From: Anaerolineales bacterium
GTDB taxonomy: Bacteria; Chloroflexota; Anaerolineae; Aggregatilineales; J027
Assembly (NCBI GenBank): GCA_020634155.1
Contig: JACKCI010000001.1
Span: 982,711-1,046,710 of the forward strand
DNA: 64,000 nucleotides
Reading direction: 5' to 3'
A program made the position numbers and the translations under genes. The notes under the pieces were generated by a model. That model ran no database searches. It saw only the letters and a program-made list of their open reading frames with translations, and was not told the origin of the DNA. This document shows, piece after piece, positions 14,419-27,340 of the stretch. Position 1 is the first letter of the stretch. Each line of letters begins with the position of its first letter.

Positions 14419-15486
14419 ATGTACCGCCGATTTTGGATTGTAGCGCTTACACTTGCGTTGTTCGCTATTCCACTAACAAGCGCCTTCGCCCAAGATGGTA
14501 GCAGCGCCATCCATAAACTCGATATTTCCCGTCTACGCCATGAATACCAAGGCTGGAACAATTGCGGCCCAACTACGCTGACGATGGGTCTCAGTTACTA
14601 TGGCTATACATCCGACCAAAACCCTGCCGCTCTCTTCCTTAAACCTCACCGCGAGGATAAAAACGTAAGCCCCGAAGAGATGGTGGCTTATGTTAACGAG
14701 GAAGTGCCGAACACCCTAGCCTTATATCGTCCGGGAGGCGACCTTGAATTGATTAAGTCACTCTTGGCGGCTGACTTTCCCGTCATCGTGGAAAAGGGTT
14801 ATGAGCCGGAAGGCTATGAGTGGATGGGCCATTATCTATTGCTGATTGGCTACAACGACGATGAAGGCTACTTTTATACCTATGATAGCTTCAGCGGGCA
14901 TGGCAACTTCCAAGGGCTGCATGAAAGCTATGACCACCTCACCGAGTATTGGTGGCATTTTAGTAACACCTTCATTGTCATCTACACCCCTGACCGCGAA
15001 GCCGAACTAATGACCGTGCTGGGTGATCGCGCTGACCTCACCACTGCCTATCAACTGATGGCCCAAACCGCCGTTGAGCGCCTGCAACTGGATAGCAATG
15101 ATACATGGGCGTGGTTCAATGTAGCGGATGCTCTCACGGAATTGGGGCAATATGAGCAGGCCACCCAATACTTCCGCGTGGCAATTGAAAAAGGCCTACC
15201 TTGGCGCACGATGTGGTACCGTCACACTCCCTTTGAAGCCTTCTATCAGGCAGGCTATTTCGATAAGGTACTCGAACTGGTCAGTATCAACCTCGCCAAT
15301 ACCCCTTATGTCGAGGAATGGTACTACTATCGTGGGCTGGTCTATGCCTCACGTGGTCAAAGCGACCAAGCGCGTGCCGAGTTCAACACAGCGTTGCAAT
15401 ACAATAAGAACGACGATGAAACCATTGAGGCTCTTGCCGAATTGGACAACGGGACTTTTCAGGTTGTAGCAGAAGCCACCCAATGA
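14419..15486 (+). CDS. Secreted C39-like peptidase domain protein with C-terminal TPR repeats
   Basis: Signal peptide MYRRFWIVALTLALFAIPLTSAFA. GWNNCGPTTLTMGLSYYG matches the C39-like cysteine peptidase motif. TPR-like C-terminus. RBS AAGGAG at 14405-14410. Confidence 0.65.
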   Translation: MYRRFWIVALTLALFAIPLTSAFAQDGSSAIHKLDISRLRHEYQGWNNCGPTTLTMGLSYYGYTSDQNPAALFLKPHREDKNVSPEEMVAYVNEEVPNTLALYRPGGDLELIKSLLAADFPVIVEKGYEPEGYEWMGHYLLLIGYNDDEGYFYTYDSFSGHGNFQGLHESYDHLTEYWWHFSNTFIVIYTPDREAELMTVLGDRADLTTAYQLMAQTAVERLQLDSNDTWAWFNVADALTELGQYEQATQYFRVAIEKGLPWRTMWYRHTPFEAFYQAGYFDKVLELVSINLANTPYVEEWYYYRGLVYASRGQSDQARAEFNTALQYNKNDDETIEALAELDNGTFQVVAEATQ

Positions 15487-15560
15487 TTGGGGGTTATCGC
15501 TTTGCCCCGCTTTTGACTACAATAACGAGGTACTGTCTACACACAAGGGAGGAGTATCCT

Positions 15561-17030
15561 GTGTTAAAACAAAAATTTATGATTCTGCCCCTCGCGCTAA
15601 TTTTGACCCTCGCGCTATCGGGCTGCTTAGACCTCTTTACCATTCCCTCCATATCTGTCAGCAATGATAATCAATGGGTGGCGTTCTTGACCACAGGCGG
15701 CGACAATCTAGACCAAATGACATTGCAAGCGGTCAACCTCAACGATGGCAGTATCGTCGCCGTTGGCGAAGAAGGTTCTAATCAAGGGGCCTTCGATTGG
15801 AACCCCACTGCCACTGAAATCGCCTACTACAATCTGGCTGCTGATGGCACGCCCTCGGTGCGCGTCAGTGACCTGAGCGATGCAGGTCAAGAGGCCCTCG
15901 GCGTATTTGCTTTCCCGCGCAATTTCTGGGTAACCCAGATGGCCTATTCACCCGATGGCAACTGGCTGGCTTTGGCCGTCATTCTCTTACCCGAAGACTT
16001 TATCATGACTCCCGATAGCGATAGTTCCATTGAAGGTGTTGTGACCGAGTCGGCCCTTTACCTTGCGAATCTAGCAGATGGCACCGTAACCGCAGCCAGC
16101 AACCCCGGTGAGCTTACCATTTCAACCGTTGCATGGAGTCCCGATGGCGCAAAGGTTGCCTTCACCGCATGGAAAGATGGTAATGGAGATGGCACCATTG
16201 ATAGCTCCGGTGCAGGCATTATGGAAGCTATGTTTGGCGCAGGTGACATCACCGACATCTATGTTTACGATATTGCCAGCCAAAGCATCACCGCATTTGA
16301 TGATGGCAACATGAACCTATCTCCCGATTGGCTTGGCCCGAATACCCTTGTCTACAGCGCCTATGTCCTCAACTTCATGAGTCCCGATGTAGGGACACTT
16401 GCCATTAATTCCTATGACCTCACCAGCAGCACCAGCACCACCTTGGTAGCAGGTAGCGAGTCAGCTTCTTTCTTGTCGGTCTCGGCCTCACCAGATGGCT
16501 CCAAGATTGCCTATATCCAAAGCCCTGAAGGTGGTGACAGCATGATGATGGGCGGCTTTGAGGGTGATATGGGTACAGAACCTACTGAAGAGGCTCCTGC
16601 TGAACCCATCCAAGTGATTGTCGCCAATGCTGACGGTTCTAACCCAACCGTTGTCTATGAAACACCCGGCGACGGTCTACCCTTTGATGTGCCTGTTTGG
16701 TCACAAGACGGCGCGTGGCTCTTCTTGAGCAATGGTAACCCACTCGGCTCCGTTGTGGGTAGCATGTCCTCAGCTTTCGCCACTGGCTTTACCGAGGGCA
16801 TGGAAGACCTCGAAGGTATGGAGGGTGTCGAAGGCGTCGATGAACTCGAAGGTGTTGGCGAGATGCTCCCCACCCAGATGATTGTAGCCATTGACCTCAA
16901 TGATTCTGCCAATACCAAGGTCGTCTATGAAGGCTCAATAGCCTCACCCGCCCTTATGCAATTCGCCTTTTCCATGTCCTCTATGGCATCTGGCTTTGAC
17001 GATATGGAGTTTGATACCAGTGGCGAATAG
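15561..17030 (+). CDS. PD40/TolB-like beta-propeller lipoprotein
   Basis: GTG at 15561 after AAGGGAGGAG. Lipobox LALSGC. Repeated PD40 signatures YSPDGNWLA, WSPDGAKVAF, ASPDGSKIAYI. Confidence 0.7.
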   Translation: MLKQKFMILPLALILTLALSGCLDLFTIPSISVSNDNQWVAFLTTGGDNLDQMTLQAVNLNDGSIVAVGEEGSNQGAFDWNPTATEIAYYNLAADGTPSVRVSDLSDAGQEALGVFAFPRNFWVTQMAYSPDGNWLALAVILLPEDFIMTPDSDSSIEGVVTESALYLANLADGTVTAASNPGELTISTVAWSPDGAKVAFTAWKDGNGDGTIDSSGAGIMEAMFGAGDITDIYVYDIASQSITAFDDGNMNLSPDWLGPNTLVYSAYVLNFMSPDVGTLAINSYDLTSSTSTTLVAGSESASFLSVSASPDGSKIAYIQSPEGGDSMMMGGFEGDMGTEPTEEAPAEPIQVIVANADGSNPTVVYETPGDGLPFDVPVWSQDGAWLFLSNGNPLGSVVGSMSSAFATGFTEGMEDLEGMEGVEGVDELEGVGEMLPTQMIVAIDLNDSANTKVVYEGSIASPALMQFAFSMSSMASGFDDMEFDTSGE

Positions 17031-17056
17031 TCGCATCCGTTAGCCTGTCAATCTAT

Positions 17057-17084
17057 AAGGGGTCGGTCACTGGATCGGCCCTTT
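17057..17084 (+). terminator. Possible hairpin terminator between convergent genes
   Basis: AAGGGGTCGGTC-ACTG-GATCGGCCCTTT forms a 12-bp stem if three G-U pairs are allowed on the + transcript. The U-tract is weak. It overlaps the stop of the minus-strand gene. Confidence 0.3.
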
Positions 17085-17700
17085 ATGATTCATAATGCAC
17101 CCCTGCCGCCAAAAGTTGATTGCGGCAATCCACCGCCCGTGTATCAATCAAGCGATGGCGCTCAATCAAATAGGCCAAAGTAAAATCCATCGAGAATAAC
17201 AAAGCAGCATCAAGGTCTAGCTGACACAGCGCCCGCAGACGCTCTACGTTGGGATAGTGCCGAGTAGGTTCTATCAGGTCGGCCAATAGCACCACTTTAT
17301 CAAGAGAAGCCATATTGGGCGCACCCGTGGTGTGGTACGTACACGCTGAGGCAAGTTGAGGGTCATCGAATTGAAATTCCTCATTTGCTAACAAATAGCC
17401 AACCGCCCCATGCAGCAAATCGGGGACTTGGCGCTCTATCTCGATAATGGGCCAATCATAGGCACGGGCCGTCTGCAAGAGCGTTTCATCGTCAAGACTC
17501 TTAGCGGCATCATGAATCCAGCCTGCCAGACGCGCTTGCAGCACTTGGGTAGGGGCATAGCGCCGAGCGAGTTGGTCAGCCGCTTCCACCACCCCACACA
17601 CATGCGCCCAACGCTTGGCGGGTACCCGTGCCTCAGCCCATTGCCGTACTTGTTCTTCAAGTTCTGGTGTATACACAGTGCATCCTTTAGCAAAAATCAC
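17083..17700 (-). CDS. HD-domain phosphohydrolase, YqeK-like
   Basis: RWAHVCGVVEAA, WIHDAAK (HD pair), YHTTG. GTG start at 17700. Confidence 0.75.
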   Translation of the reverse strand: MIFAKGCTVYTPELEEQVRQWAEARVPAKRWAHVCGVVEAADQLARRYAPTQVLQARLAGWIHDAAKSLDDETLLQTARAYDWPIIEIERQVPDLLHGAVGYLLANEEFQFDDPQLASACTYHTTGAPNMASLDKVVLLADLIEPTRHYPNVERLRALCQLDLDAALLFSMDFTLAYLIERHRLIDTRAVDCRNQLLAAGVHYES

Positions 17701-17702
17701 GG

Positions 17703-17731
17703 TTGCGAATATATGATTCCAATGCTATATT
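17703..17731 (+). promoter_or_regulatory. Candidate promoter for tRNA-Arg
   Basis: TTGCGA (17703-17708), 17-nt spacer, TATATT (17726-17731), 11 nt before the tRNA 5' end. Confidence 0.5.
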
Positions 17732-17742
17732 GTAAAGGTAAT

Positions 17743-17815
17743 GTCCCACTAGCTCAAAGGATAGAGCGTTGCCCTCCGGAGGCAAAGGCTGTAGGTTCGA
17801 ATCCTACGTGGGACG
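17743..17815 (+). tRNA. tRNA-Arg (anticodon CCG)
   Basis: Hand-folded cloverleaf, 73 nt: acceptor GTCCCAC/GTGGGAC, D stem GCTC/GAGC, anticodon stem TTGCC/GGCAA with loop CTCCGGA, T stem GTAGG/CCTAC with loop TTCGAAT. No encoded CCA. Confidence 0.9.
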
Positions 17816-17837
17816 TTTAGTCATTTGGGATATAATT

Positions 17838-19577
17838 ATGCCACCTTCCTTACAACAATTCTCACTAATTAAGAGTCATGTCAAACATTTTGAAGATGAA
17901 CTCAAGTTAACCTCTGAGAATGCCTTCTATTTCTTTGTTCTAGGTCTTATTCTTGATCTTCAAGAAGATGAAATTAAGGATTCAATTACAGATAACCAGT
18001 ATTTAGCCCAGCATTTGAGTGGTAGAGGGGGGCATGACCGAGGTATCGATGCAGTTTATATAGACGAAACAGGTGCAGTTCCTGTGGTACACCTATTCAA
18101 CTGCAAATACACATCCAAGTTTGACAAGACACGTAACAACCTTCCTGCTTCCGAAATTGACAAAATATTAGGGTTTGTGAAAGATCTAATCTCAAAAGAG
18201 CTAGATTTGAAAGAAACCGTTAACCCAATCTTAGCCAGTAAGGTACAAGAAATCTGGGATATTTTTGATAAACACAACCCAGAGTTCGAAATACACTTTT
18301 GTGCCAATTACTATAACGGATTTGAGGCACAAGAGAAAACGCGGTTCGAGAAAAGTGTGGGTAGTTACTCAGACTTCAAAATTAACTATCACTTAATGGA
18401 AGATTTACATAGTCGTGTTTTGCAGTCTGGAAAAAAAACTGTAAATGCAAGACTTAGGGCGATTGATAAGAATTATTTCGAGAAATCTGATGGGGATATT
18501 CGGGCACTTATTGTCGATGTTGAGGCAAGGGAGTTACTACGAATCGTAATCGACGATCAAGGGATTCGTAATGATACTGACTATGAAGATTACACAAAAC
18601 TTGTAAACTATTCTATTCTCGAAGATGCTTTTGAGAACAACATTAGAATCTATCTAAAACAGCGGTCAAAGATCAATAGAAATATTAAGAAGACGGCACT
18701 ATCAGATACTGATCACTTTAGATTTTTTTATTTCAATAACGGCATTACTATTACCTGCGATCGCTTTACTTACATGAAATCAGGTCGTGCTCCCATAATA
18801 GACCTTCAAAACCTACAAATCGTAAATGGGAGTCAAACAATACATGCCCTCTATGAAGCATTTAATGAAAATCCAAGACTTTTCGACAACATAGATGTAT
18901 TGGTTCGTATCTATGAAACGCAAAATGCGGAACTGAGTACAAGAATTGCGGAATATACTAATAGTCAGAATCCAGTAAAGAGTCGTGACATTCGCTCAAT
19001 TGATTATGTACAGCAAATCTTAGAGGCAGAGTTGGATGCGCTGGGGTTTTATTATGAAAGGAAGAAGAACCAATACTATTATCAACCTCGGGAAAAGAGG
19101 ATTGACGCAGAGAAAACAGGTCAAGTGTTATTTGCGTTCTATAATAAGATGCCACTTGAAGCCAAGAATGAGAAGCGGCTGATTTTTGGAGAAAAATATG
19201 AGGAGATATTCAATGATGAAATAAATGCTGATAAAGTTCTACTTCCGTATCGTTTATTTGAGTATATTGAAAAAAGGAAGGACACTAAGAAGCGTGAAAT
19301 GCTAGACACATCGGCAAATTTCGATGACGATTCGTTTATACTGGTAGCTTCCTATCATATTCTGTACATTATTGGAGAGATAGCAACAAAGAAAAATCTA
19401 GAATTTAGATTATCAAACCTTAGTGCATTTCAAATGCTGTACGATCAAGCAGTTGAGCTAGTTCGCAAGTTGATAAGCATTGAAAAGTCATCCGACGACA
19501 AGTATAACCACACTAAATTCTTTAAATCAATCAAACCAAAGAGATTGTTTGAAGAACACATTTTGTCAGAACTTTAG
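17838..19577 (+). CDS. AIPR-family abortive-infection (phage resistance) protein
   Basis: 580-aa ORF in a clearly AT-rich block. N-terminal GGHDRGIDAVYIDE...LFNCKY (nuclease-like) and central YFNNGITITC...IVNGSQTIHAL, which I recognise as the AIPR signature. ATG at 17838. The listed 17769 start runs through the tRNA. Confidence 0.65.
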   Translation: MPPSLQQFSLIKSHVKHFEDELKLTSENAFYFFVLGLILDLQEDEIKDSITDNQYLAQHLSGRGGHDRGIDAVYIDETGAVPVVHLFNCKYTSKFDKTRNNLPASEIDKILGFVKDLISKELDLKETVNPILASKVQEIWDIFDKHNPEFEIHFCANYYNGFEAQEKTRFEKSVGSYSDFKINYHLMEDLHSRVLQSGKKTVNARLRAIDKNYFEKSDGDIRALIVDVEARELLRIVIDDQGIRNDTDYEDYTKLVNYSILEDAFENNIRIYLKQRSKINRNIKKTALSDTDHFRFFYFNNGITITCDRFTYMKSGRAPIIDLQNLQIVNGSQTIHALYEAFNENPRLFDNIDVLVRIYETQNAELSTRIAEYTNSQNPVKSRDIRSIDYVQQILEAELDALGFYYERKKNQYYYQPREKRIDAEKTGQVLFAFYNKMPLEAKNEKRLIFGEKYEEIFNDEINADKVLLPYRLFEYIEKRKDTKKREMLDTSANFDDDSFILVASYHILYIIGEIATKKNLEFRLSNLSAFQMLYDQAVELVRKLISIEKSSDDKYNHTKFFKSIKPKRLFEEHILSEL

Positions 19578-19658
19578 AAAAACGTTGGGTCGTTATTTCT
19601 ACCCACAGTCCCCTTTTCTTCCCAATTATATGAATCTCCGCCTTCACCTATCCAACTA

Positions 19659-19701
19659 GCTAGGTCAAGAACTAGTCGTGAAGCCAATAGATTGACCTAG
19701 C
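19659..19701. repeat. Perfect 10-bp inverted repeat with 23-nt spacer in the non-coding tail of the islet
   Basis: GCTAGGTCAA (19659-19668) and TTGACCTAGC (19692-19701). The right arm contains a TTGACC -35-like hexamer. Confidence 0.6.
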
Positions 19702-19907
19702 AAATTGCTATATGCTTATATTACGAACATTTGTCTGAGGTGGTGGAGATAAATTGACTGATGCGTATCAAAGTTCCAGAAATGAAATCTCTGATCTTGC
19801 CTTATTGATTGGGCTTCGCTCTAAAGGTTCAAGTATCCATGGTTTTTCATCAGTCAAAAAGACTCCACTACCTTGTCTGAGCCATTGATGCACAAGGAAC
19901 TCCACTT

Positions 19908-21194
19908 ATGAATAGTAAGCACCTGCTCAGTAGAAGTCTAGCATTGTCCCTCATCCTACTGCTGATACTCGCCGCTGTAGGCTGTACCTCAAAAGATGAT
20001 GAAACCAAGGATAAGACCCACACACCGTCCATTGCGATTCTGCAAATGGCCCCCATCATCTTTGACCCCGTCGTGGACGGCTTCAAGACTGAAATGGCTA
20101 CCCTTGGCTATACTGAGGGTCAGAATATCAACTATACCCTTGTTGTCTCACCCGACTCCACAATGGGTGTTGTTGAGGAAGCCTTAGAAAAGAATGATTT
20201 TGATGTACTGGTGATTATTCCCGCTGGGGTCAAACCCAATAGCTATGTGTTAGGGCTTCAGGAGTTGGGCAACACGCCGATTGTGTTCACACCGGGCGGC
20301 ACCGACCCTGTAGTAGAAGGCTATGCCGAAAGCCTCACCAAACCCAACATGAATGTTACGGGTGTCTTGGTAGCAGAAGCAGATGAGCGTCGTTTTCAGT
20401 TATTTCTTGAAATGCTCCCTAATGCCAACCGTATCGCAATACCCTATGACGCAACCAACCCCACCAGTGCCGCCGCCCTTGCCAATATTCAGGCCCTAGC
20501 CAATGTTGCTGGTGTTGAGCTTCTGCTATACGATATTCCAGTCGGAGATGCCGAGGCGACGCCTAACGCCATTGCCCAACTACCTGATGATGTCGATGGC
20601 ATTTTTGTACTCAAGGTATGGGCAACTGTTCCTTGGCTAGAAATCTCCGCCCAGCGACGTATCCCCAACTCAGTTGATAGCGCTGATACCGAGGGATTCC
20701 ATGTGTTGGCCTATGGCCCTAGCCTTCGCAAAATGGGCGAGCAAGCCGCTGGCCTCGTCTCGCAAATCCTGAATGGCACCCCCGCAGGCGACCTCCCCAT
20801 TGAGACCTCCGAGTTTGTATTGACCATCAATCTCGGCGCAGCCAATGCTATCGGGTTGACCATCCCAACCGGCCTGCTTGAGCAAGCCCAAGAAATCAGA
20901 CGCGACGAGGTACTCTTGCCCGCCGCTGTGCCAACTGAATCAGTGGTTGGGGCCTGCAACGCCCAAGTGACCAGCCCCGGTGGTACCAACACCATCTGTG
21001 TGACCACCGCCTGTAGTGGACTCACCAGCAGTGCCTTCCTCAGCTATAGTGACCAGACCGACGTAGAGGCCTGTTCAACTGAGGCAGTCGTTGGTATCTG
21101 CTCCACCAGTGCCTATGATATTTACTACTACGATGGGCAAGCATCATCCTTGGCAACGGGCTGCGGCTTCCTGTCGGGTACATGGCAGGAGTGA
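19908..21194 (+). CDS. ABC-transporter-type substrate-binding lipoprotein (ABC_sub_bind/BMP-like) with Cys-rich C-terminal tail
   Basis: Lipobox LAAVGC. SIAILQMAPIIFDPVVDGFKTEMATLGYTEGQNINY matches the family N-terminal pattern. The last 85 aa or so contain 8 Cys. Confidence 0.7.
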   Translation: MNSKHLLSRSLALSLILLLILAAVGCTSKDDETKDKTHTPSIAILQMAPIIFDPVVDGFKTEMATLGYTEGQNINYTLVVSPDSTMGVVEEALEKNDFDVLVIIPAGVKPNSYVLGLQELGNTPIVFTPGGTDPVVEGYAESLTKPNMNVTGVLVAEADERRFQLFLEMLPNANRIAIPYDATNPTSAAALANIQALANVAGVELLLYDIPVGDAEATPNAIAQLPDDVDGIFVLKVWATVPWLEISAQRRIPNSVDSADTEGFHVLAYGPSLRKMGEQAAGLVSQILNGTPAGDLPIETSEFVLTINLGAANAIGLTIPTGLLEQAQEIRRDEVLLPAAVPTESVVGACNAQVTSPGGTNTICVTTACSGLTSSAFLSYSDQTDVEACSTEAVVGICSTSAYDIYYYDGQASSLATGCGFLSGTWQE

Positions 21195-21201
21195 GCCTAT
21201 C

Positions 21202-23532
21202 ATGCTGAGACGCCTTCGTGTCCAACAGACGCTCTTCGCCTTATTCGTAGCGCTCACGCCGCTGTTTATTGTGACGGCTATCATCGCCCAACGCAGCTTC
21301 AGCACCCTTGAGGAAGAGGCCATTCGGTCTCAAGGCCAAGAAGCGCGAGTCGCCGCCACTGAGATCGAATCCTTCATCCAAGGTCGTGAGAATCAACTGC
21401 GCTTGGTGAGTGAAGTCCGCAGTATCGGCACCCTCAGCCAAGCCGAGCAACAAACCATCCTGAGCGGATTGTTGGCCTACGATTCCGCTTATCAAGAACT
21501 AACCCTGCTGAACGCGGATGGTGCTGAGGTCGTGCGGGTATCCCGAAGTGAGTCGTTTGCGCCTGATGAATTGGGAAATCGGAACACTGATGTAGCCTTT
21601 GTCCAACCCCGCGACACAGGCGAAGCTTATTTTAGCGAGGTGCGTTTTGATGAGGTGGTGCGTGAGCCTCTCATTACCATTGCTGTGCCTATCATCAACC
21701 TTACATCAGGCCAAGCTAGTCATGTACTGGTTGCCGAGTTCCGCTTCCGCCCCATCTGGGACTTAATCGCTCAACTCAAGGGCAACCAAACCACCACCGA
21801 TGTTTTTGTCACGGACACTCAGGGGCGTCTGGTCGCCCATGCCAATCCCTCGCTGGTCTTGCGCGAAACCACCTTTGACCTCCCCAAAGAAAATGGGGCT
21901 GCGACAGGTCTCGAAGGTGATGAAGTCATCTTGGCTCGTGAAGCCATCAATTATGGCAACCAATCCTTAGTCGTCATTGCCGAGCGTGATTACTCCGATG
22001 CCCTCAGCCTCGCCAACGACATTCTGCGAATCAGCATCACGATTGTGGTCATCTCGGCGATTGCGGTACTGATCTTTGTATCGTTGGCCCTCACCCAATT
22101 GATTGGCCCCATTGCCCGCCTGACCAAAACCGCCAAGGTCATTAGTGAGGGGAATCTTGCCGCCGCCGCGCAAGTATCTGGCCCCACTGAAATTCGTGAA
22201 CTGGCACAGTCCTTCAATAGCATGACGGGCCAACTTCGAGATTTGATTAGCAACCTTGAGACACGGGTCAATGAACGTACCCATGACCTACAAATTGCCG
22301 CGACGGTATCCACCCAGATTACCACCCTCTTAGATACCAACGAGCTATTAACGGAAGTTAGCAAGCAGTTGCAGGAGGGGTTTGATTTTTATCATACGGG
22401 GGTATTCCTGTATGACGAAGAGACACAGCATCTGCAATTGGCGGCTCGTACCGGGCGTGATAGCACCGCTATTGGGGAAAACTTCTCAATGACTCTAGAC
22501 GCCCAAGGTCTGATTCCCAAGGCCGCCCGTAATCGTGAGCCAATCGTCGCCAACAATGTTGCTGTTGAACCCGACTATACGCGACACCCTGCTCTAACCC
22601 AAACTCAAGCCGAGTTAACCATCCCGATGGTTGTCGGCGGCAACCTCATCGGGGTATTGGACTTGCAGTCTGACAAACAAGACCGCTTCGGGGCTGATGA
22701 GCTACAGGTACTCCCCACCCTCGCCCAGCAAATCGGTATTGCTATCGTCAATGCCCGTTCCTACTCGGATGCCGAAGAAGCCCGCCAGATTGCCGAAGAG
22801 TCCAACAAGGTCAAATCGCAATTCTTAGCGAACATGTCCCACGAATTGCGGACACCGCTTAACGCTATTTTGAACTTCACGGGCTTTGTTGCCGATGGGT
22901 TGATGGGTGAAGTCAATGAGCGCCAAGTCACTGCCCTCAATCAATCTATCACCAGTGGCAAGCATCTTCTATCACTGATTAATGACATCCTCGACATCAC
23001 CAAGATTGAGGCAGGTCTGATGGACTTATTCATCCAAGAAGTCGATATGAATGAGATTATCAGCGCGGGGGTCTCCGTGGGCAAAGGGCTGGTCAAAGAT
23101 AAGCCTATCAAACTCTTTGATGAGATTGATACAGATTTACCCGTCACCTTTGGTGATAAGCGCCGCTTGCGCCAAGTCCTCCTTAACATGATTTCCAATG
23201 CCGTGAAGTTCACCCCCGAAGGAACCGTGACAGTCACGGCCCGCCGTGCCGACAGCACGATCTTGATTACAGTAAAGGATACAGGCATCGGCATCGCGCC
23301 CGATGACCAACACTTGGTATTTGAATCCTTTAAGCAAGCCAAGCACGACCTTCACGATACCATAGGCACAGGACTCGGTATGCCTATCTCCAAGTTTTTT
23401 GTCGAATCGCATGGCGGTACAATCTGGCTGGAGAGCGAGGTGGGTGTCGGCACAACCTTCTTCGTTGAGCTGCCTATCTTGACGGAAGAACAGGCGAAAG
23501 CTCTCTCAGAGCAAATCGCGCAACCCGCCTAA
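21202..23532 (+). CDS. Sensor histidine kinase (extracytoplasmic sensor-HAMP-GAF-HisKA-HATPase)
   Basis: Two TM helices flank a sensor of about 280 aa. HAMP (IGPIARLTKTAKVISEGNL). GAF region. H-box MSHELRTPLNAI. N box NAVKFTPEG, G1 DTGIGI, G2 GTGLGMPISK. ATG at 21202. Confidence 0.9.
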   Translation: MLRRLRVQQTLFALFVALTPLFIVTAIIAQRSFSTLEEEAIRSQGQEARVAATEIESFIQGRENQLRLVSEVRSIGTLSQAEQQTILSGLLAYDSAYQELTLLNADGAEVVRVSRSESFAPDELGNRNTDVAFVQPRDTGEAYFSEVRFDEVVREPLITIAVPIINLTSGQASHVLVAEFRFRPIWDLIAQLKGNQTTTDVFVTDTQGRLVAHANPSLVLRETTFDLPKENGAATGLEGDEVILAREAINYGNQSLVVIAERDYSDALSLANDILRISITIVVISAIAVLIFVSLALTQLIGPIARLTKTAKVISEGNLAAAAQVSGPTEIRELAQSFNSMTGQLRDLISNLETRVNERTHDLQIAATVSTQITTLLDTNELLTEVSKQLQEGFDFYHTGVFLYDEETQHLQLAARTGRDSTAIGENFSMTLDAQGLIPKAARNREPIVANNVAVEPDYTRHPALTQTQAELTIPMVVGGNLIGVLDLQSDKQDRFGADELQVLPTLAQQIGIAIVNARSYSDAEEARQIAEESNKVKSQFLANMSHELRTPLNAILNFTGFVADGLMGEVNERQVTALNQSITSGKHLLSLINDILDITKIEAGLMDLFIQEVDMNEIISAGVSVGKGLVKDKPIKLFDEIDTDLPVTFGDKRRLRQVLLNMISNAVKFTPEGTVTVTARRADSTILITVKDTGIGIAPDDQHLVFESFKQAKHDLHDTIGTGLGMPISKFFVESHGGTIWLESEVGVGTTFFVELPILTEEQAKALSEQIAQPA

Positions 23533-23547
23533 AACGGAAAGGAACCA

Positions 23548-23964
23548 ATGAGTATGGACACTGCGAATCCGCGAATCCTCTATGTTGAAGACGATATGTT
23601 GAGCCGTTCCGTCGCTGAAATCTTGTTCACCCAAGTGTTAGGGTTTAAGCACATAACCACCTTCGAGAACAGTGAGAATTTCATCGACCGGCTGGAAAAG
23701 CTAGAAAACAAACCGGATGTCATCTTCCTAGATATTCAAATGCGCCCGCATGATGGCTATGAATTGCTGGAGATGCTTCGCAAACAACCCGACTATGCCG
23801 ATGCAACGGTGGTGGCTCTGACCGCCAACGTGATGGCCCATGATGTCGAAAAACTCAAGCAAGTTGGCTTTAATGGCTTAATTGGCAAACCGCTCATGCG
23901 TGAAATCTTCCCGCAGTTGGTGCAAAACATCATCGCAGGTCAAGCGGTTTGGTACATTCCCTAG
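23548..23964 (+). CDS. Single-domain response regulator (receiver only)
   Basis: YVEDD, phospho-acceptor FLDIQM, LTAN, GKPL. No output domain. Confidence 0.85.
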   Translation: MSMDTANPRILYVEDDMLSRSVAEILFTQVLGFKHITTFENSENFIDRLEKLENKPDVIFLDIQMRPHDGYELLEMLRKQPDYADATVVALTANVMAHDVEKLKQVGFNGLIGKPLMREIFPQLVQNIIAGQAVWYIP

Positions 23965-23988
23965 GACGTATTTAGAGAGGCAAAGTGT

Positions 23989-24402
23989 ATGTTGCTGACC
24001 GATAAACGTATTTTCGTCGTGGAGGATAATGTCGCCTACGCGAATATCCTCATGACCGCTCTACAAATGCAAGGGGCACAGACCTATTTTGACCGCTGGG
24101 GCACGCATACCATTAATCGGTTGCTACAACTCGGTCACATTGATATTATCTTGATGGACTTGATGTTGGCAAACAACATCAGTGGCTACGATGTCTTTGA
24201 TGAAATTCAAGCCATACCCGAACTCAGCACCATTCCAGTAGTAGTGGTAAGCGCCTCCGATGCTACCTTGGAAATGGATAAATGCAGAAAGAAAGGCTTT
24301 GCAGGTTTTATCAGCAAGCCCATTAGCTTGAAAACCCTACCCCAGACCATCGCACGTGTGCTAACGGGTACACCTGTTTGGGCTGATGAAGGCATTTATT
24401 AG
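23989..24402 (+). CDS. Single-domain response regulator (receiver only)
   Basis: VVEDN, LMDLML, VSAS, SKPI. No output domain. Confidence 0.85.
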   Translation: MLLTDKRIFVVEDNVAYANILMTALQMQGAQTYFDRWGTHTINRLLQLGHIDIILMDLMLANNISGYDVFDEIQAIPELSTIPVVVVSASDATLEMDKCRKKGFAGFISKPISLKTLPQTIARVLTGTPVWADEGIY

Positions 24403-24432
24403 TTCAGTTCTCATTCATAAGGAGTAGGTCAG

Positions 24433-24831
24433 GTGACCGATCTTGTTGGTAAATTGGCATTGATAATCGAGGATGATGCTACCAGCATCGCCGTCCTCCA
24501 ACAATTACTAGAGAATGTCGGGGTCGAAGCCGAAGTCATCACCGATAACTTCCGTATCTCCGATCACCTACAGCAAGCCCAACGCCCTGATGTCATTTTC
24601 CTTGATTTGGAGATGCCCCAAGCCAACGGCTATACAGTGTTAGAGTATATTCAACAGAATTCCAAGTTTGATGGCCTGCCAATTGTGGCCTACACTACCC
24701 ACATTAGCCATCTCAATGATGCCAAGAAGGCAGGCTTCCATAGCTTCCTCGGCAAGCCACTGGATGGCAAACTCTTTCGTGAACAACTCACCCGTATCCT
24801 AAATGATATTCCAGTGTGGGAAGTGCCCTAG
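24433..24831 (+). CDS. Single-domain response regulator (receiver only)
   Basis: GTG start 7 nt after AAGGAG. IIEDD, FLDLEM, YTTH, GKPL. No output domain. Confidence 0.85.
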   Translation: MTDLVGKLALIIEDDATSIAVLQQLLENVGVEAEVITDNFRISDHLQQAQRPDVIFLDLEMPQANGYTVLEYIQQNSKFDGLPIVAYTTHISHLNDAKKAGFHSFLGKPLDGKLFREQLTRILNDIPVWEVP

Positions 24832-24855
24832 AAATAACAGGCGGAGGTCATTACC

Positions 24856-25977
24856 ATGTATTGGCGCTTGATACTGCTCAGTTTAGCCATCATTGGGCTA
24901 ACGCTGCATCCCCGCCCCACTCAAGGGCAAGGAGCAGATGGTTCATTTTATACAGGCGCTGACCTCTCCTATCTCAATGAAATGGAAGATTGCGGGGCTG
25001 TCTACCAAGAAGGAGGCCGCCCCCAAGACATCTATGGCCTTTTTGCGGGCTATGGAGCCACCCTTGTCCGTACCCGTCTATGGCATACCCCCACATGGAC
25101 AGACTATAGCACCCTTGATGATGTGATTCGCACGTTTAGCCGAGCGCGGGATGCTGGCATGGCGACTCTACTCGCTATCCACTATTCGGATACGTGGGCC
25201 GACCCCAGCCACCAGACTATCCCCGCCGCGTGGGAGGACATTGACGAAGGGCCAGACCTTGAAGCCGCCGTTTATCAATACACCTATGATGTGATGATTG
25301 CCCTCCACGCCGAAGGCTTGGCACCTGCGTTTGTGCAGATTGGCAACGAAATCAACTCTGGCTTGATTAAGCGTGATGACACCATTGGCCTTGAATGGGG
25401 ACGCGATTCACGTTTGATTCTGGCAGGCATTCAAGCGGTGCGGGACTTTGGTCAAGCGACGGACAGCACCCCTCAAATCGTCCTACACATTGCACAACCC
25501 GAAAATGCGATGGGGTGGCTCATTGATGGCGAAGCGCATGGCATCACAGACTTTGATGTCATCGGCCTATCCTACTACCCACAATGGAGTCCCTACACCA
25601 TTGATGAAGTCGGGCAACAGGTCGATATGCTGCGCCAACACTTTGGCAAAGAAGTGATGATAGTCGAGACCGCCTATCCTTGGACAAACGACTATGCCGA
25701 TTCCGCCAACAATATCCTCAGCCAAGAATTAGCAGGCTATCCGGTCAGTATCGAAGGCCAGCGTCAATTCATGCTGGATTTGACGCAAACCCTCATCAAC
25801 CATCAGGCGCTAGGGGTCGTGTATTGGGAGCCAGCGTGGGTATCAACGGGCTGCTCTACCCCTTGGGGGCGTGGCTCACATTGGGAAAACGCCACCTTCT
25901 TTGACTTCCAACATGACAATGAACTGCTACCCGTGATTGACTTTCTCGCCCTACGGCCTAGCGCAACCGAGGAGTAA
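24856..25977 (+). CDS. Arabinogalactan endo-beta-1,4-galactanase (GH53)
   Basis: Signal peptide. VQIGNEINSG (acid/base Glu) and MIVETAYPW (nucleophile Glu). YYPQWS. Confidence 0.85.
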   Translation: MYWRLILLSLAIIGLTLHPRPTQGQGADGSFYTGADLSYLNEMEDCGAVYQEGGRPQDIYGLFAGYGATLVRTRLWHTPTWTDYSTLDDVIRTFSRARDAGMATLLAIHYSDTWADPSHQTIPAAWEDIDEGPDLEAAVYQYTYDVMIALHAEGLAPAFVQIGNEINSGLIKRDDTIGLEWGRDSRLILAGIQAVRDFGQATDSTPQIVLHIAQPENAMGWLIDGEAHGITDFDVIGLSYYPQWSPYTIDEVGQQVDMLRQHFGKEVMIVETAYPWTNDYADSANNILSQELAGYPVSIEGQRQFMLDLTQTLINHQALGVVYWEPAWVSTGCSTPWGRGSHWENATFFDFQHDNELLPVIDFLALRPSATEE

Positions 25978-27340
25978 TCACCCGTCCAGTTGGTGCTTCA
26001 AACGCGGCAAGGGGTTGGTTGGTCAGGTGGCTCAAAACCATGCAGGCACAGCCACGAGCGGTCACTTCGTCGCTCTCAATCAGCACCAATTCACGCCTCA
26101 ACGCATCGGCCATGATTTGGGGCCACACAGCGGATTGCCGCAACGCGCCACCCCCGCCGTAGACTCGCTCAACCGATTCAGCATTGGGCAGTCGTTCAGC
26201 AATCAGCGCCAACTGATGGGCTACCCCTTCTAAAGCAGCCTGAAGAATATCTACCGCCGAGGTTGTCAGCCGCAAGCCATGTATGCTACCCGTCGCGTGT
26301 GGATTCCAATTCGGGCTACGTTCCCCCGCCAGATGGGGTACAAAGGTCAAGCCGTGCGTATGGGAGAGGCGTTGGATGATTTGCTGCTCGGCGTCCGGTG
26401 GCAGATTTAGAGTGTCTCTAGCCCACTGATAGACATTGCCGCCCTCGCTGGTCGCTCCACCAATCAGATGACGGGTCGCATCCACCCGATAGGCCCATAA
26501 GCCCTGTGGCACAGGTGGCATAAAATCGCTGCTTATCATTCGCAAGGCCGCCGTCGTCCCAACCGTTAAGGCCATGCTGCACTCATCCAATACGCCGACG
26601 CCAATCGTTGCCGCTGCACCATCCCCGACTGCCAAATAAATTGGCACCTCCAGCAGATGGGGCCAACGTAGAGCATAGCTTGGCTGTAGGCCGTGTTGTG
26701 TCGCGGTGTAATCTGCCAGTGTAGGAAACTGCTGTGGGGTCATACCCAAGGCCCGAAGCCAGACATCATCCCATGTCAGCGTGTCGCGGTTGAGCAGGCC
26801 GCTCCATGAAGCCATTGAATAGCTCATAGGGACATCAACACCGAACCACTGGCGATACAGATAACTGCCAAAATCAACCCACTGCCGCACCTGCTGCACT
26901 ACATCAGGTTGGGTGCGGTGGAGCCATGCCAATTGACCCGGCCAATAGGCGGTATGGTGGGGACACCCCGTGCGCTGAAGCGTATCGCTTGCCAGATAAG
27001 TGTGGCGAAGTGTCTCAAGATCAGCACTAGAGCGGCTATCGGCATAAGTTAGTAGTGGGGTCAGGGGTTGGTTATCGGCACCAAGACCAATACAATTGCT
27101 GGCAAAAGTCGTCAGGCCAACGGCTTGAATGGTAGCAGCCGCAGGATGCTGCAACACCTCATCTATACAGCGCTCAACACGGTGCTGCAATGCCTCAACT
27201 TCAAAATAAGCCGCCCCTGCCCTATCAGTTTGCATCTGGTGCTGATGCTGTACGAATGCGGCTGGAATCAGTCGGGCGCTACTATCGAATAGCAACGCCC
27301 GCACCGATGAACTGCCAATATCAATCACAAGGACAGTCAT
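25958..27340 (-). CDS. FGGY-family carbohydrate kinase (gluconokinase/xylulokinase-like)
   Basis: VLVIDIGSSSVRALLFD N-terminus, GGATSEGGNV, GGGALRQSAVWPQIMADAL. ATGA overlap with the upstream gene. Confidence 0.85.
   Translation of the reverse strand: MTVLVIDIGSSSVRALLFDSSARLIPAAFVQHQHQMQTDRAGAAYFEVEALQHRVERCIDEVLQHPAAATIQAVGLTTFASNCIGLGADNQPLTPLLTYADSRSSADLETLRHTYLASDTLQRTGCPHHTAYWPGQLAWLHRTQPDVVQQVRQWVDFGSYLYRQWFGVDVPMSYSMASWSGLLNRDTLTWDDVWLRALGMTPQQFPTLADYTATQHGLQPSYALRWPHLLEVPIYLAVGDGAAATIGVGVLDECSMALTVGTTAALRMISSDFMPPVPQGLWAYRVDATRHLIGGATSEGGNVYQWARDTLNLPPDAEQQIIQRLSHTHGLTFVPHLAGERSPNWNPHATGSIHGLRLTTSAVDILQAALEGVAHQLALIAERLPNAESVERVYGGGGALRQSAVWPQIMADALRRELVLIESDEVTARGCACMVLSHLTNQPLAAFEAPTGRVITPRLR

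Follow-up and report, generated by a model that had tools for sequence, protein, structure and literature searches.

The locus examined here raises two connected questions: how a gene of the abortive-infection type came to begin directly behind a tRNA gene, and from which promoter it could be transcribed in that position. It lies in a stretch of 64 kb from an Anaerolineales genome (the window), which a first-pass annotation, made from the letters only, had taken to contain a horizontally acquired single-gene defence islet at a tRNA hotspot, apparently sharing the promoter of tRNA-Arg(CCG). We consider it fairly probable, for the reading as a whole, that a solitary AbiU/AIPR gene was acquired behind the tRNA, lost most of its leader, is driven by the tRNA promoter and acts as a single-protein defence. 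The features on which the argument is built are collected in Table 1.

Table 1. Features of the tRNA-Arg(CCG)-AIPR locus, in window coordinates
Feature	Position	Strand	Basis and remarks
tRNA promoter, sigma-70-like TTGCGA-17-TATATT	17703..17731	+	consensus scan; TG before -10
tRNA-Arg(CCG)	17743..17815	+	Rfam 67 bits; lineage-native; no CCA encoded
Spacer, left junction of foreign DNA, 22 nt	17816..17837	+	homology to the related contig L148 stops after 17816
Segment without counterpart at the L148 locus, 8,150 nt	17817..25966		BLAST, alignments
AbiU/AIPR-family gene, 579 aa, 36% GC, intact	17838..19577	+	Pfam AIPR; PADLOC AbiU
Predicted FokI-like (restriction-endonuclease-like) N-terminal domain	17838..18437	+	AlphaFold2, Foldseek; limits approximate
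AIPR domain with invariant NNG-T and VNG-QT-H motifs	18630..19478	+	residues 265-547; Pfam, family alignment
Non-coding tail, 40.6% GC	19578..19907		between AIPR stop and start of the substrate-binding protein gene
Hairpin, 10-bp perfect stem, 23-nt loop, no T-tract after it	19653..19707	+	repeat search, fold
MITE-like footprint	19731..19881		direct repeat bracketing inverted repeats

A horizontally acquired AIPR gene

The open reading frame (ORF), closed by a stop codon at 19575-19577, encodes an AIPR-type protein, as first proposed. Pfam AIPR (PF10592) is matched with 155 bits against a cut-off of 25 (E 4.8e-45), the PADLOC AbiU profile is matched end to end (residues 9-566 against profile positions 4-531 of 537, E 2.1e-50), and all three motifs quoted in the first-pass annotation are present in the translation. 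Pfam gave no match in the N-terminal 203 aa nor in the last 159 aa, a sequence profile search of the PDB returned no match, and neither HEPN nor DndB similarity was detected in the protein, contrary to statements in the literature. The AlphaFold2 model (pLDDT 83.5) found 1fok_A as its top Foldseek match (E 3.8e-3, probability 1.0, 205 aligned columns); a resemblance to FokI has also been published for lactococcal AbiU (PMC13064643). The residues of this domain that are invariant in the family are E45, D71 and N88-x-K90, and the window protein carries every family-invariant residue because it was itself one of the 43 sequences used to define the invariant columns. In the putative nuclease motif, D71...N88-x-K90, an invariant Asn stands where the second acidic residue is expected, and because of this replacement (D...NxK) the nuclease activity of the modelled FokI-like domain is uncertain.

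The gene is compositionally foreign to its surroundings, which agrees with the AT-richness seen at first inspection. GC content is 0.364 in the ORF, 0.406 in the tail and 0.51-0.52 in the flanks; the 40 other long ORFs of the window have 52.7 ± 2.3%, and the AIPR ORF is the single outlier of the 41, its deviation being about 7 SD for GC and about 4 SD for GC3. Its closest homologue is only 62% identical and the homologue family is spread over Bacteroidota, Cyanobacteria, Chloroflexota and others. Foreign composition, distant homologues in several phyla and absence from the tRNA locus of a relative, described below, all bear out the horizontal acquisition proposed earlier. The gene is shown, at the level of its sequence, to be a horizontally acquired, solitary gene of the AbiU/AIPR type, for which an anti-phage function is predicted; its neighbours are the tRNA and a gene for an ABC substrate-binding protein (SBP).

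Much of this recurs elsewhere in the family. Wherever a flank could be measured, in 31 of 31 homologous loci, the AIPR gene has a higher AT content than its flanks; for the nearest homologues this holds in 4 of 4 loci (3 distinct homologues), and these genes are also solitary, amid housekeeping genes and with no integrase nearby. The clade appears everywhere as a solitary, strongly AT-rich gene set into GC-richer genomes, and the window adds a new Chloroflexota member to the AbiU/AIPR family. Linkage to a tRNA was rejected as a family trait: in none of the 102 homologous loci does a tRNA lie 1.6 kb or less from the AIPR gene, and the tRNA-junction arrangement is a single instance.

The junction at the tRNA and the 8.15-kb segment

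The tRNA, for which ARAGORN gives the limits 17742-17816, could be compared with one related locus that spans the junction, on the contig L148 of the closest relative available, with about 72% nucleotide identity. There yqeK and the promoter are as in the window and the tRNA is identical over 73 of 73 positions in the alignment, but the AIPR gene is missing; 7 nt after the tRNA comes a canonical terminator made of a 10-bp hairpin (AACCAGTGGAGCGTATTCACTGGTT) and a T-tract (TTTATTTT), followed by a convergent FGGY kinase gene. Homology between the two loci stops one base past the discriminator and restarts at 25967, so that L148 has 78 nt, including the tRNA terminator, against 8.15 kb in the window. 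The segment, which carries the genes for AIPR, the SBP, a histidine kinase, three response regulators and GH53, stands in for the intrinsic terminator of the tRNA and for the end of the convergent kinase gene, five codons plus the stop. Since the relative is only about 72% identical, the difference may be either an insertion here or a deletion in L148.

The comparison at this tRNA, suggested in the first-pass annotation, returned an allele without the AIPR gene and so favours a defence islet; a clean insertion of one gene between conserved neighbours does not stand, since the AIPR gene is the AT-rich left edge of a lineage-specific 8.15-kb segment whose other 5.9 kb is of native composition. 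The idea of a tRNA hotspot also has to be toned down, L148 being the one alternative allele behind it. Other relatives said little about the site. Exact-protein look-ups with AIPR, the long form of YqeK and P0001 yielded no contig. The relatives from a scan with YqeK (identity at most 58%) have no tRNA beside yqeK and are therefore unusable as empty sites; in SBP relatives at 52-54% identity the operon has different surroundings, with no tRNA; the contigs of an SBP relative at 73% identity end 16-47 nt ahead of the gene, in two cases within adapter sequence; and Logan contigs of the same strain break within the tRNA and say nothing on alleles.

The 330 nt that follow the AIPR gene are indeed non-coding. 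They gave no Rfam match, hold no remnant of the upstream SBP paralogue present in relatives, and show no significant fold as a whole (z = -1.0). The perfect 10-bp inverted repeat reported in them is real and sits inside 16-nt arms (19653-68 and 19692-707). The fold is -16.6 kcal/mol (z = -2.5), and the repeat itself was equalled in 6 of 500 shuffles, mildly above chance. An integron gene cassette was also considered and rejected, because this hairpin is without the GTTRRRY end of an attC consensus and there is no integrase. Further along the tail, a 9-bp direct repeat, TTGTCTGAG (19731-39 and 19873-81), brackets 26-nt imperfect inverted repeats (19738-63 and 19848-73), giving the terminal inverted repeats flanked by a target-site duplication by which a MITE is recognized. 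This MITE-like footprint, with a fold of z = -3.0, was reproduced by none of 200 shuffles and is the only such case in the 2638 direct-repeat pairs of the window; no further copies were found in the window, the fetched loci or viral contigs.

These observations bear on a rival explanation of the origin, in which the AIPR gene would be the remnant of a larger, integrase-borne element inserted in the tRNA 3' end, with the integrase and the distant att repeat lost in a later deletion that also removed the native terminator and the final part of the kinase gene. Three traits are shared with tRNA islands: the junction falls at the 3' end of the tRNA, the composition is atypical, and the gene is absent from a relative (one relative). 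The left junction falls exactly at the point used by elements that target tRNAs, tRNA loci often serve as integration sites (PMC10121019), the right junction within the last codons of the kinase fits a deletion, and the MITE-like footprint shows mobile-element activity at the spot. However, no integrase is found among the genes of the segment, and the whole 64 kb yielded, in keeping with the first-pass annotation, neither an integrase nor an att direct repeat, nor a second copy of the 3' part of the tRNA with up to 3 mismatches. Moreover, the 102 homologous loci without an adjoining tRNA, the solitary nearest homologues without an integrase and the native composition of the other 5.9 kb all speak against such an element, and we regard it as rather unlikely.

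Transcription and translation behind the tRNA

From the discriminator, G17815, to the ATG at 17838 there are exactly 22 nt, as originally stated, and this start is supported by the homologues, whose N-termini begin MPSLQDFS... In the public NCBI entry, P0001 (589 aa), the protein begins instead at GTG 17808, within the tRNA gene; this start looks mis-called and the annotation needs correction. The leaders of the homologues are 80-350 nt long and have real Shine-Dalgarno sites, with energies of -5.9 to -9.0 kcal/mol; in the neighbouring genes of the window the range is -5.2 to -10.7 kcal/mol. The claim that the window gene has no such site must be corrected, since a weak one is present: GGGA at 17827-30, 7 nt upstream of the ATG, pairs with a generic anti-Shine-Dalgarno sequence at -4.0 kcal/mol, a value that 29% of random 20-mers from the window also reach.

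The promoter in front of the tRNA matches the consensus at 9 of 12 positions, and its hexamers and 17-nt spacing are identical in L148, with substitutions in the spacer between them. It is the sole plus-strand match upstream of the AIPR ORF, which upholds its description as the only good promoter nearby, in a scan that used an E. coli-type consensus while Chloroflexota promoters are little described. No hairpin forms in the 22 nt between tRNA and ORF, as had been said of this interval, and no terminator-like site occurs on either strand in 17000-20500; on the plus strand no convincing terminator precedes 21247. With both genes on one strand, the promoter ahead of the tRNA and no intervening terminator, the locus is arranged like a tRNA-mRNA operon. 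Read-through into the AIPR gene from the conserved tRNA promoter is plausible on these grounds, and reading from that promoter is probable because L148 has the tRNA terminator where the window has the AIPR gene. The proposal of a shared promoter is strengthened by the lost terminator and by the leader cut to 22 nt; the sharing itself we still infer.

A competing explanation, which we find doubtful, holds that the adjacency to the tRNA is incidental, that the AIPR gene has its own weak or non-canonical promoter in the 3' half of the tRNA or in the spacer, and that read-through is minor or absent. A perfect TATAAT does lie in the spacer (17831-36), AT-rich foreign DNA often makes chance promoters (9 promoter-like matches were seen in 3.5 kb against 7.6 expected from shuffles, which is no enrichment), and the sparse description of Chloroflexota promoters also leaves room for one. 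But this TATAAT was rejected as the promoter of the gene as too near the ATG: it ends 1 nt before it, so that transcription would start within an ORF whose beginning is fixed at 17838 by the N-termini of the homologues. It has no -35 partner, no other plus-strand match lies between 17731 and 19054, and the AIPR gene lacks the insulation that the native terminator would have given. That the gene is a silent passenger, promoter-less, poorly translated, without useful expression and decaying, is very unlikely, for although its Shine-Dalgarno site is weak, no promoter of its own was found and AbiU protection is modest even in Lactococcus (PMC13064643), the ORF is of full length with all family-invariant residues (as one of the 43 defining sequences), its AbiU profile match runs from end to end, and without a terminator read-through from the tRNA promoter is hard to avoid.

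Under expression from the tRNA promoter, the cassette would have arrived, or been trimmed, without a promoter of its own and with 22 nt of leader, and for this reason transcription from the conserved tRNA promoter would run on into the AIPR gene. Since the tRNA gene encodes no CCA, cleavage of the RNase Z type past the discriminator would free the tRNA from the joint transcript, leaving an mRNA whose 22-nt leader and weak ribosome-binding site would permit low constitutive expression. The product, predicted to join an N-terminal domain of FokI-like nuclease fold to the AIPR domain, may then, if lactococcal AbiU is a guide, provide defence as a single protein that interferes, once infection has begun, with phage transcription or nucleic acid. 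A more specific form of this mechanism, advanced tentatively and as possible rather than probable, is that a promoter-less cassette took over the tRNA promoter in such a way that the Abi mRNA is the 3' trailer of the tRNA-Arg precursor, with a 5' end made by RNase Z. If this is true, dosage of the defence gene would follow tRNA transcription, i.e. growth-rate control, because the 5' end of the mRNA is created by that cleavage; expression would be damped by the 5'-monophosphate end and the weak ribosome-binding site, and the arrangement would be one route to safe domestication of a potentially toxic foreign gene.

Comparison with known systems

Among defence islets the AIPR islet is ordinary, but its position is unusual. 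Lactococcal AbiU (AbiUi/AbiU1) belongs to the same Pfam family, is of similar length and is represented by the profile that the window protein matches over its full length; a FokI-like N-terminal fold is common to both (PMC13064643), for the window protein by model, and in Lactococcus lactis one gene suffices. However, AbiU is plasmid-borne in a Firmicute and the window gene is chromosomal in a Chloroflexota MAG. Unlike the AbiU system it has no AbiUii/HEPN neighbour, and it has no restriction-modification neighbour although AIPR genes are often linked to such systems (PMC3506569). The AIPR core is also shared with MzaE, which matches residues 265-392, but an MZA system was rejected because the NCBIfam MzaE score of 49.9 bits falls below the cut-off of 1050 and no Mza partner genes lie nearby.

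The tRNA defence hotspots of E. coli and Pseudomonas likewise have a foreign defence gene at a tRNA, of atypical composition and absent from a relative, and many hotspot islands show no obvious means of mobilisation (PMC10121019), as is the case here. Typically an integrase and att repeats persist in such islands, which sit past the tRNA terminator, whereas in the window 22 nt separate the tRNA from the gene and no terminator is left. The local twist is this precise 3'-end junction, at which the tRNA terminator and the cassette leader have both been lost.

Co-transcription of an Abi gene with a tRNA had been called unusual; joint transcription of tRNA and mRNA is, however, already known from the tufB operon (PMC6134099). 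In thrU-tyrU-glyT-thrT-tufB, too, the genes lie on the same strand, the promoter is upstream of the tRNAs and no terminator intervenes. The tufB arrangement is ancient, conserved and highly expressed, and that of the window would be a recent insertion accident; its tRNA junction offers a testable case of an incoming defence gene possibly expressed from a stable-RNA promoter of the host.

Comparison of the tRNA-Arg locus with a relative

A search with YqeK returned a protein of a relative (P0152) that is 77% identical, and one of its contigs, L148, crosses the tRNA junction. In the orientation of the window, L148 aligns at 72% identity over 15478-17819, and its next alignment lies at 25968-26358. 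The 66-nt spacer between yqeK and the tRNA (17677-17742) is conserved above the flanking coding DNA, TTGCGA-17-TATATT is the same in both sequences and the tRNA is identical at 73/73 positions. This spacer carries overlapping divergent promoter-like sites, at 17703-31 on the plus strand and at 17736-17708 (TTTACA-17-TATATT, 10/12) on the minus strand.

Homology ends one base past the tRNA discriminator. In L148 the tRNA is followed by a 10-bp hairpin, AACCAGTGGAGCGTATTCACTGGTT, and then by TTTATTTT, and about 30 nt beyond these a convergent FGGY kinase gene has its stop. On the right, homology restarts within the final codons of this kinase, which after the common ITPR ends with LR in the window and with TQALA in L148. 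Window positions 17817-25966 (8,150 nt) occupy the place of 78 nt in L148 (392-469).

Features of the tRNA-Arg locus and of the segment that follows it
Feature	Position	Strand	Basis or remark
tRNA-Arg(CCG)	17743-17815	+	Rfam, 67 bits; anticodon from ARAGORN
AIPR ORF	17838 (first ATG) to 19577 (end of stop)	+, as tRNA	ORF translation
AIPR gene and non-coding tail	left edge of 17817-25966		
MITE-like footprint	19731-19881		TTGTCTGAG copies flank 26-nt imperfect inverted repeats
ABC substrate-binding lipoprotein (SBP), dCache/HAMP/GAF histidine kinase, three response regulators	middle of 17817-25966		
GH53 galactanase	24856-25977, right edge of segment		ORF end overlaps 3' end of kinase gene by 20 nt

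Past the tail the segment has native composition, and in more distant relatives the SBP-kinase-regulator cluster sits at another location without a tRNA, so the segment has at least two origins. Its native-like part may have been gained here or lost in the L148 lineage, the comparison being with one relative. The first-pass annotation had proposed a single-gene islet; the AIPR gene does appear foreign and is absent at the L148 locus, but it lies within an 8.15-kb segment.

The genes at 19908-24831 encode a lipoprotein-type SBP, then the histidine kinase and three stand-alone receiver proteins; distant Anaerolineae keep this order, but behind a second SBP paralogue, which is missing in the window. 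Short-read assemblies from several samples (L141, corresponding to window 17760-25124, and L149-L153) break within the tRNA, at 17760 and 17788, which suggests that the identical tRNA is common to co-occurring genomes with different flanks.

Origin of the AIPR gene and its tail

The GC content is about 36.4-36.8% for the AIPR ORF and 40.6% for its tail, while the flanks have 51-52%. With a GC3 of 36.0%, the ORF is the sole outlier in GC and GC3 relative to the 40 other long ORFs of the window (52.7 ± 2.3% GC, 56.1 ± 5.2% GC3); the AT-rich composition first estimated by hand is thus borne out.

Members of the family are known from Bacteroidota, Cyanobacteria, Chloroflexota, Elusimicrobia and other groups, the closest homologue being 62% identical. 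At each of the 31 homologous loci where a flank could be measured, the GC content of the gene is below that of its surroundings, often by 15-25 points. The nearest homologues (34-35% GC within contigs of 52-61% GC) are solitary amid housekeeping genes, and no RM system, integrase or tRNA was found in their neighbourhoods. Across phyla, members of the clade have 25-46% GC, always under their flanks, and are mostly lone genes amid housekeeping genes (L014-L060, L083, L106, L154-L158). Being a solitary AT-rich gene is therefore a trait of the clade. Homologues with 35-50% identity were also seen on contigs of viruses or prophages in IMG/VR (L094-L107), so the family has phage-borne copies too.

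The tRNA link is not a feature of the family: of the 102 homologous loci, 97 of which came from metagenome and viral scans and five from contig look-ups, none carries a tRNA closer than 1.6 kb to the AIPR gene, and three have one at 1.7-4 kb. As previously described, there is no integrase at the locus and the 3' end of the tRNA is not repeated within the 64 kb; nor is an attC-like site present. A left junction at the exact end of the tRNA would suit arrival on a tRNA-targeting element that has since decayed, whereas the homologues, which are solitary and have no integrase around them, speak for another route.

The perfect 10-bp inverted repeat reported in the tail is real and mildly non-random (equalled in 6 of 500 shuffles; fold z = -2.5), and no T-tract goes with it. 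A second structure stands out more: the 9-bp direct repeat TTGTCTGAG, whose two copies, at 19731 and 19873, are the only ones in the window. Its arrangement with inverted repeats was reproduced in none of 200 shuffles and is the sole such case among the 2638 direct-repeat pairs of the window. The structure resembles a footprint left by a miniature transposable element of 133 nt, and it lies 26 nt ahead of the SBP gene; no second copy was found in the window, the retrieved loci or the viral contigs.

Expression of the AIPR gene

The tRNA gene does not encode CCA, and TTTAG follows directly after discriminator G17815. The ORF starts 22 nt past the discriminator, the distance first noted. ATG 17838 is its conserved start, because homologue N-termini begin MPSLQDFS..., against MPPSLQQFS in the window. 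An identical database protein (P0001, 589 aa, 'AIPR family protein [Anaerolineales bacterium]') has ten additional residues, from GTG 17808 within the tRNA gene, a start that we read, from the same N-termini, as mis-called.

Fold and terminator scans agree with the earlier description of the junction: no hairpin forms in the spacer, neither strand has a terminator-like site at 17000-20500, and there is no convincing plus-strand terminator ahead of 21247. Upstream of the ORF, the only promoter-like site on the plus strand is that of the tRNA, also as proposed; since promoter-scan hits were not enriched over shuffles, the case for it is better made by its conservation in L148. With a single base between it and the ATG, a perfect TATAAT at 17831-36 is ruled out as a promoter of the full ORF. 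The leaders of homologues measure 80-350 nt and contain clear ribosome-binding sites (-5.9 to -9.0 kcal/mol). The Shine-Dalgarno sequence of this copy, called absent at first, is present but weak: GGGA lies at the equivalent position with -4.0 kcal/mol, a value that 29% of random 20-mers reach as well.

On the simplest view, the AIPR cassette lost its own promoter, and its transcription would come from read-through that begins at the tRNA promoter. CCA-less tRNA precursors are cleaved endonucleolytically after the discriminator by RNase Z; such a cut would free tRNA-Arg and leave an AIPR mRNA with a 22-nt leader. The one point of note is that the junction replaces the terminator, which makes tRNA-promoter-driven expression likely, and this is easy to test.

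The AIPR protein and known systems

Profile searches uphold the AIPR identity: Pfam AIPR matches residues 265-547 (E 4.8e-45, 155 bits against a cut-off of 25) and PADLOC AbiU matches residues 9-566 over positions 4-531 of 537 (E 2.1e-50), while NCBIfam MzaE matches the core only (49.9 bits against a cut-off of 1050). An AlphaFold2 model built with 43 homologues is confident (pLDDT 83.5, pTM 0.72). Its top PDB match is FokI (1fok_A, E 3.8e-3, probability 1.0), with nothing else at E <= 0.1. E45, D71, N88 and K90 are invariant in the homologue alignment, a pattern that fits a PD-(D/E)xK-like site in which Asn stands in for the second acid, and we infer that this site could be catalytically competent.

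Overall, the observation of the first-pass annotation is confirmed and its interpretation largely right, once amended for the 8.15-kb context, the weak Shine-Dalgarno sequence and the precedent of tRNA-mRNA operons.

The same FokI resemblance is described for lactococcal AbiU in a 2026 review, according to which resistance from AbiUi by itself is modest and phage transcription is delayed (PMC13064643). An older review assigns HEPN to AIPR proteins (PMC3506569), but a domain search found no HEPN signal here. Co-transcription of an Abi gene with a tRNA, called unusual at first, would be so for a defence gene, yet it would have precedent, since tRNA-mRNA operons such as thrU-tyrU-glyT-thrT-tufB are known (PMC6134099). 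Defence islands that lie at tRNA hotspots and lack recognisable mobility genes have been documented (PMC10121019), and the AIPR gene is a further member of a defence family already known, at a site of a familiar type.
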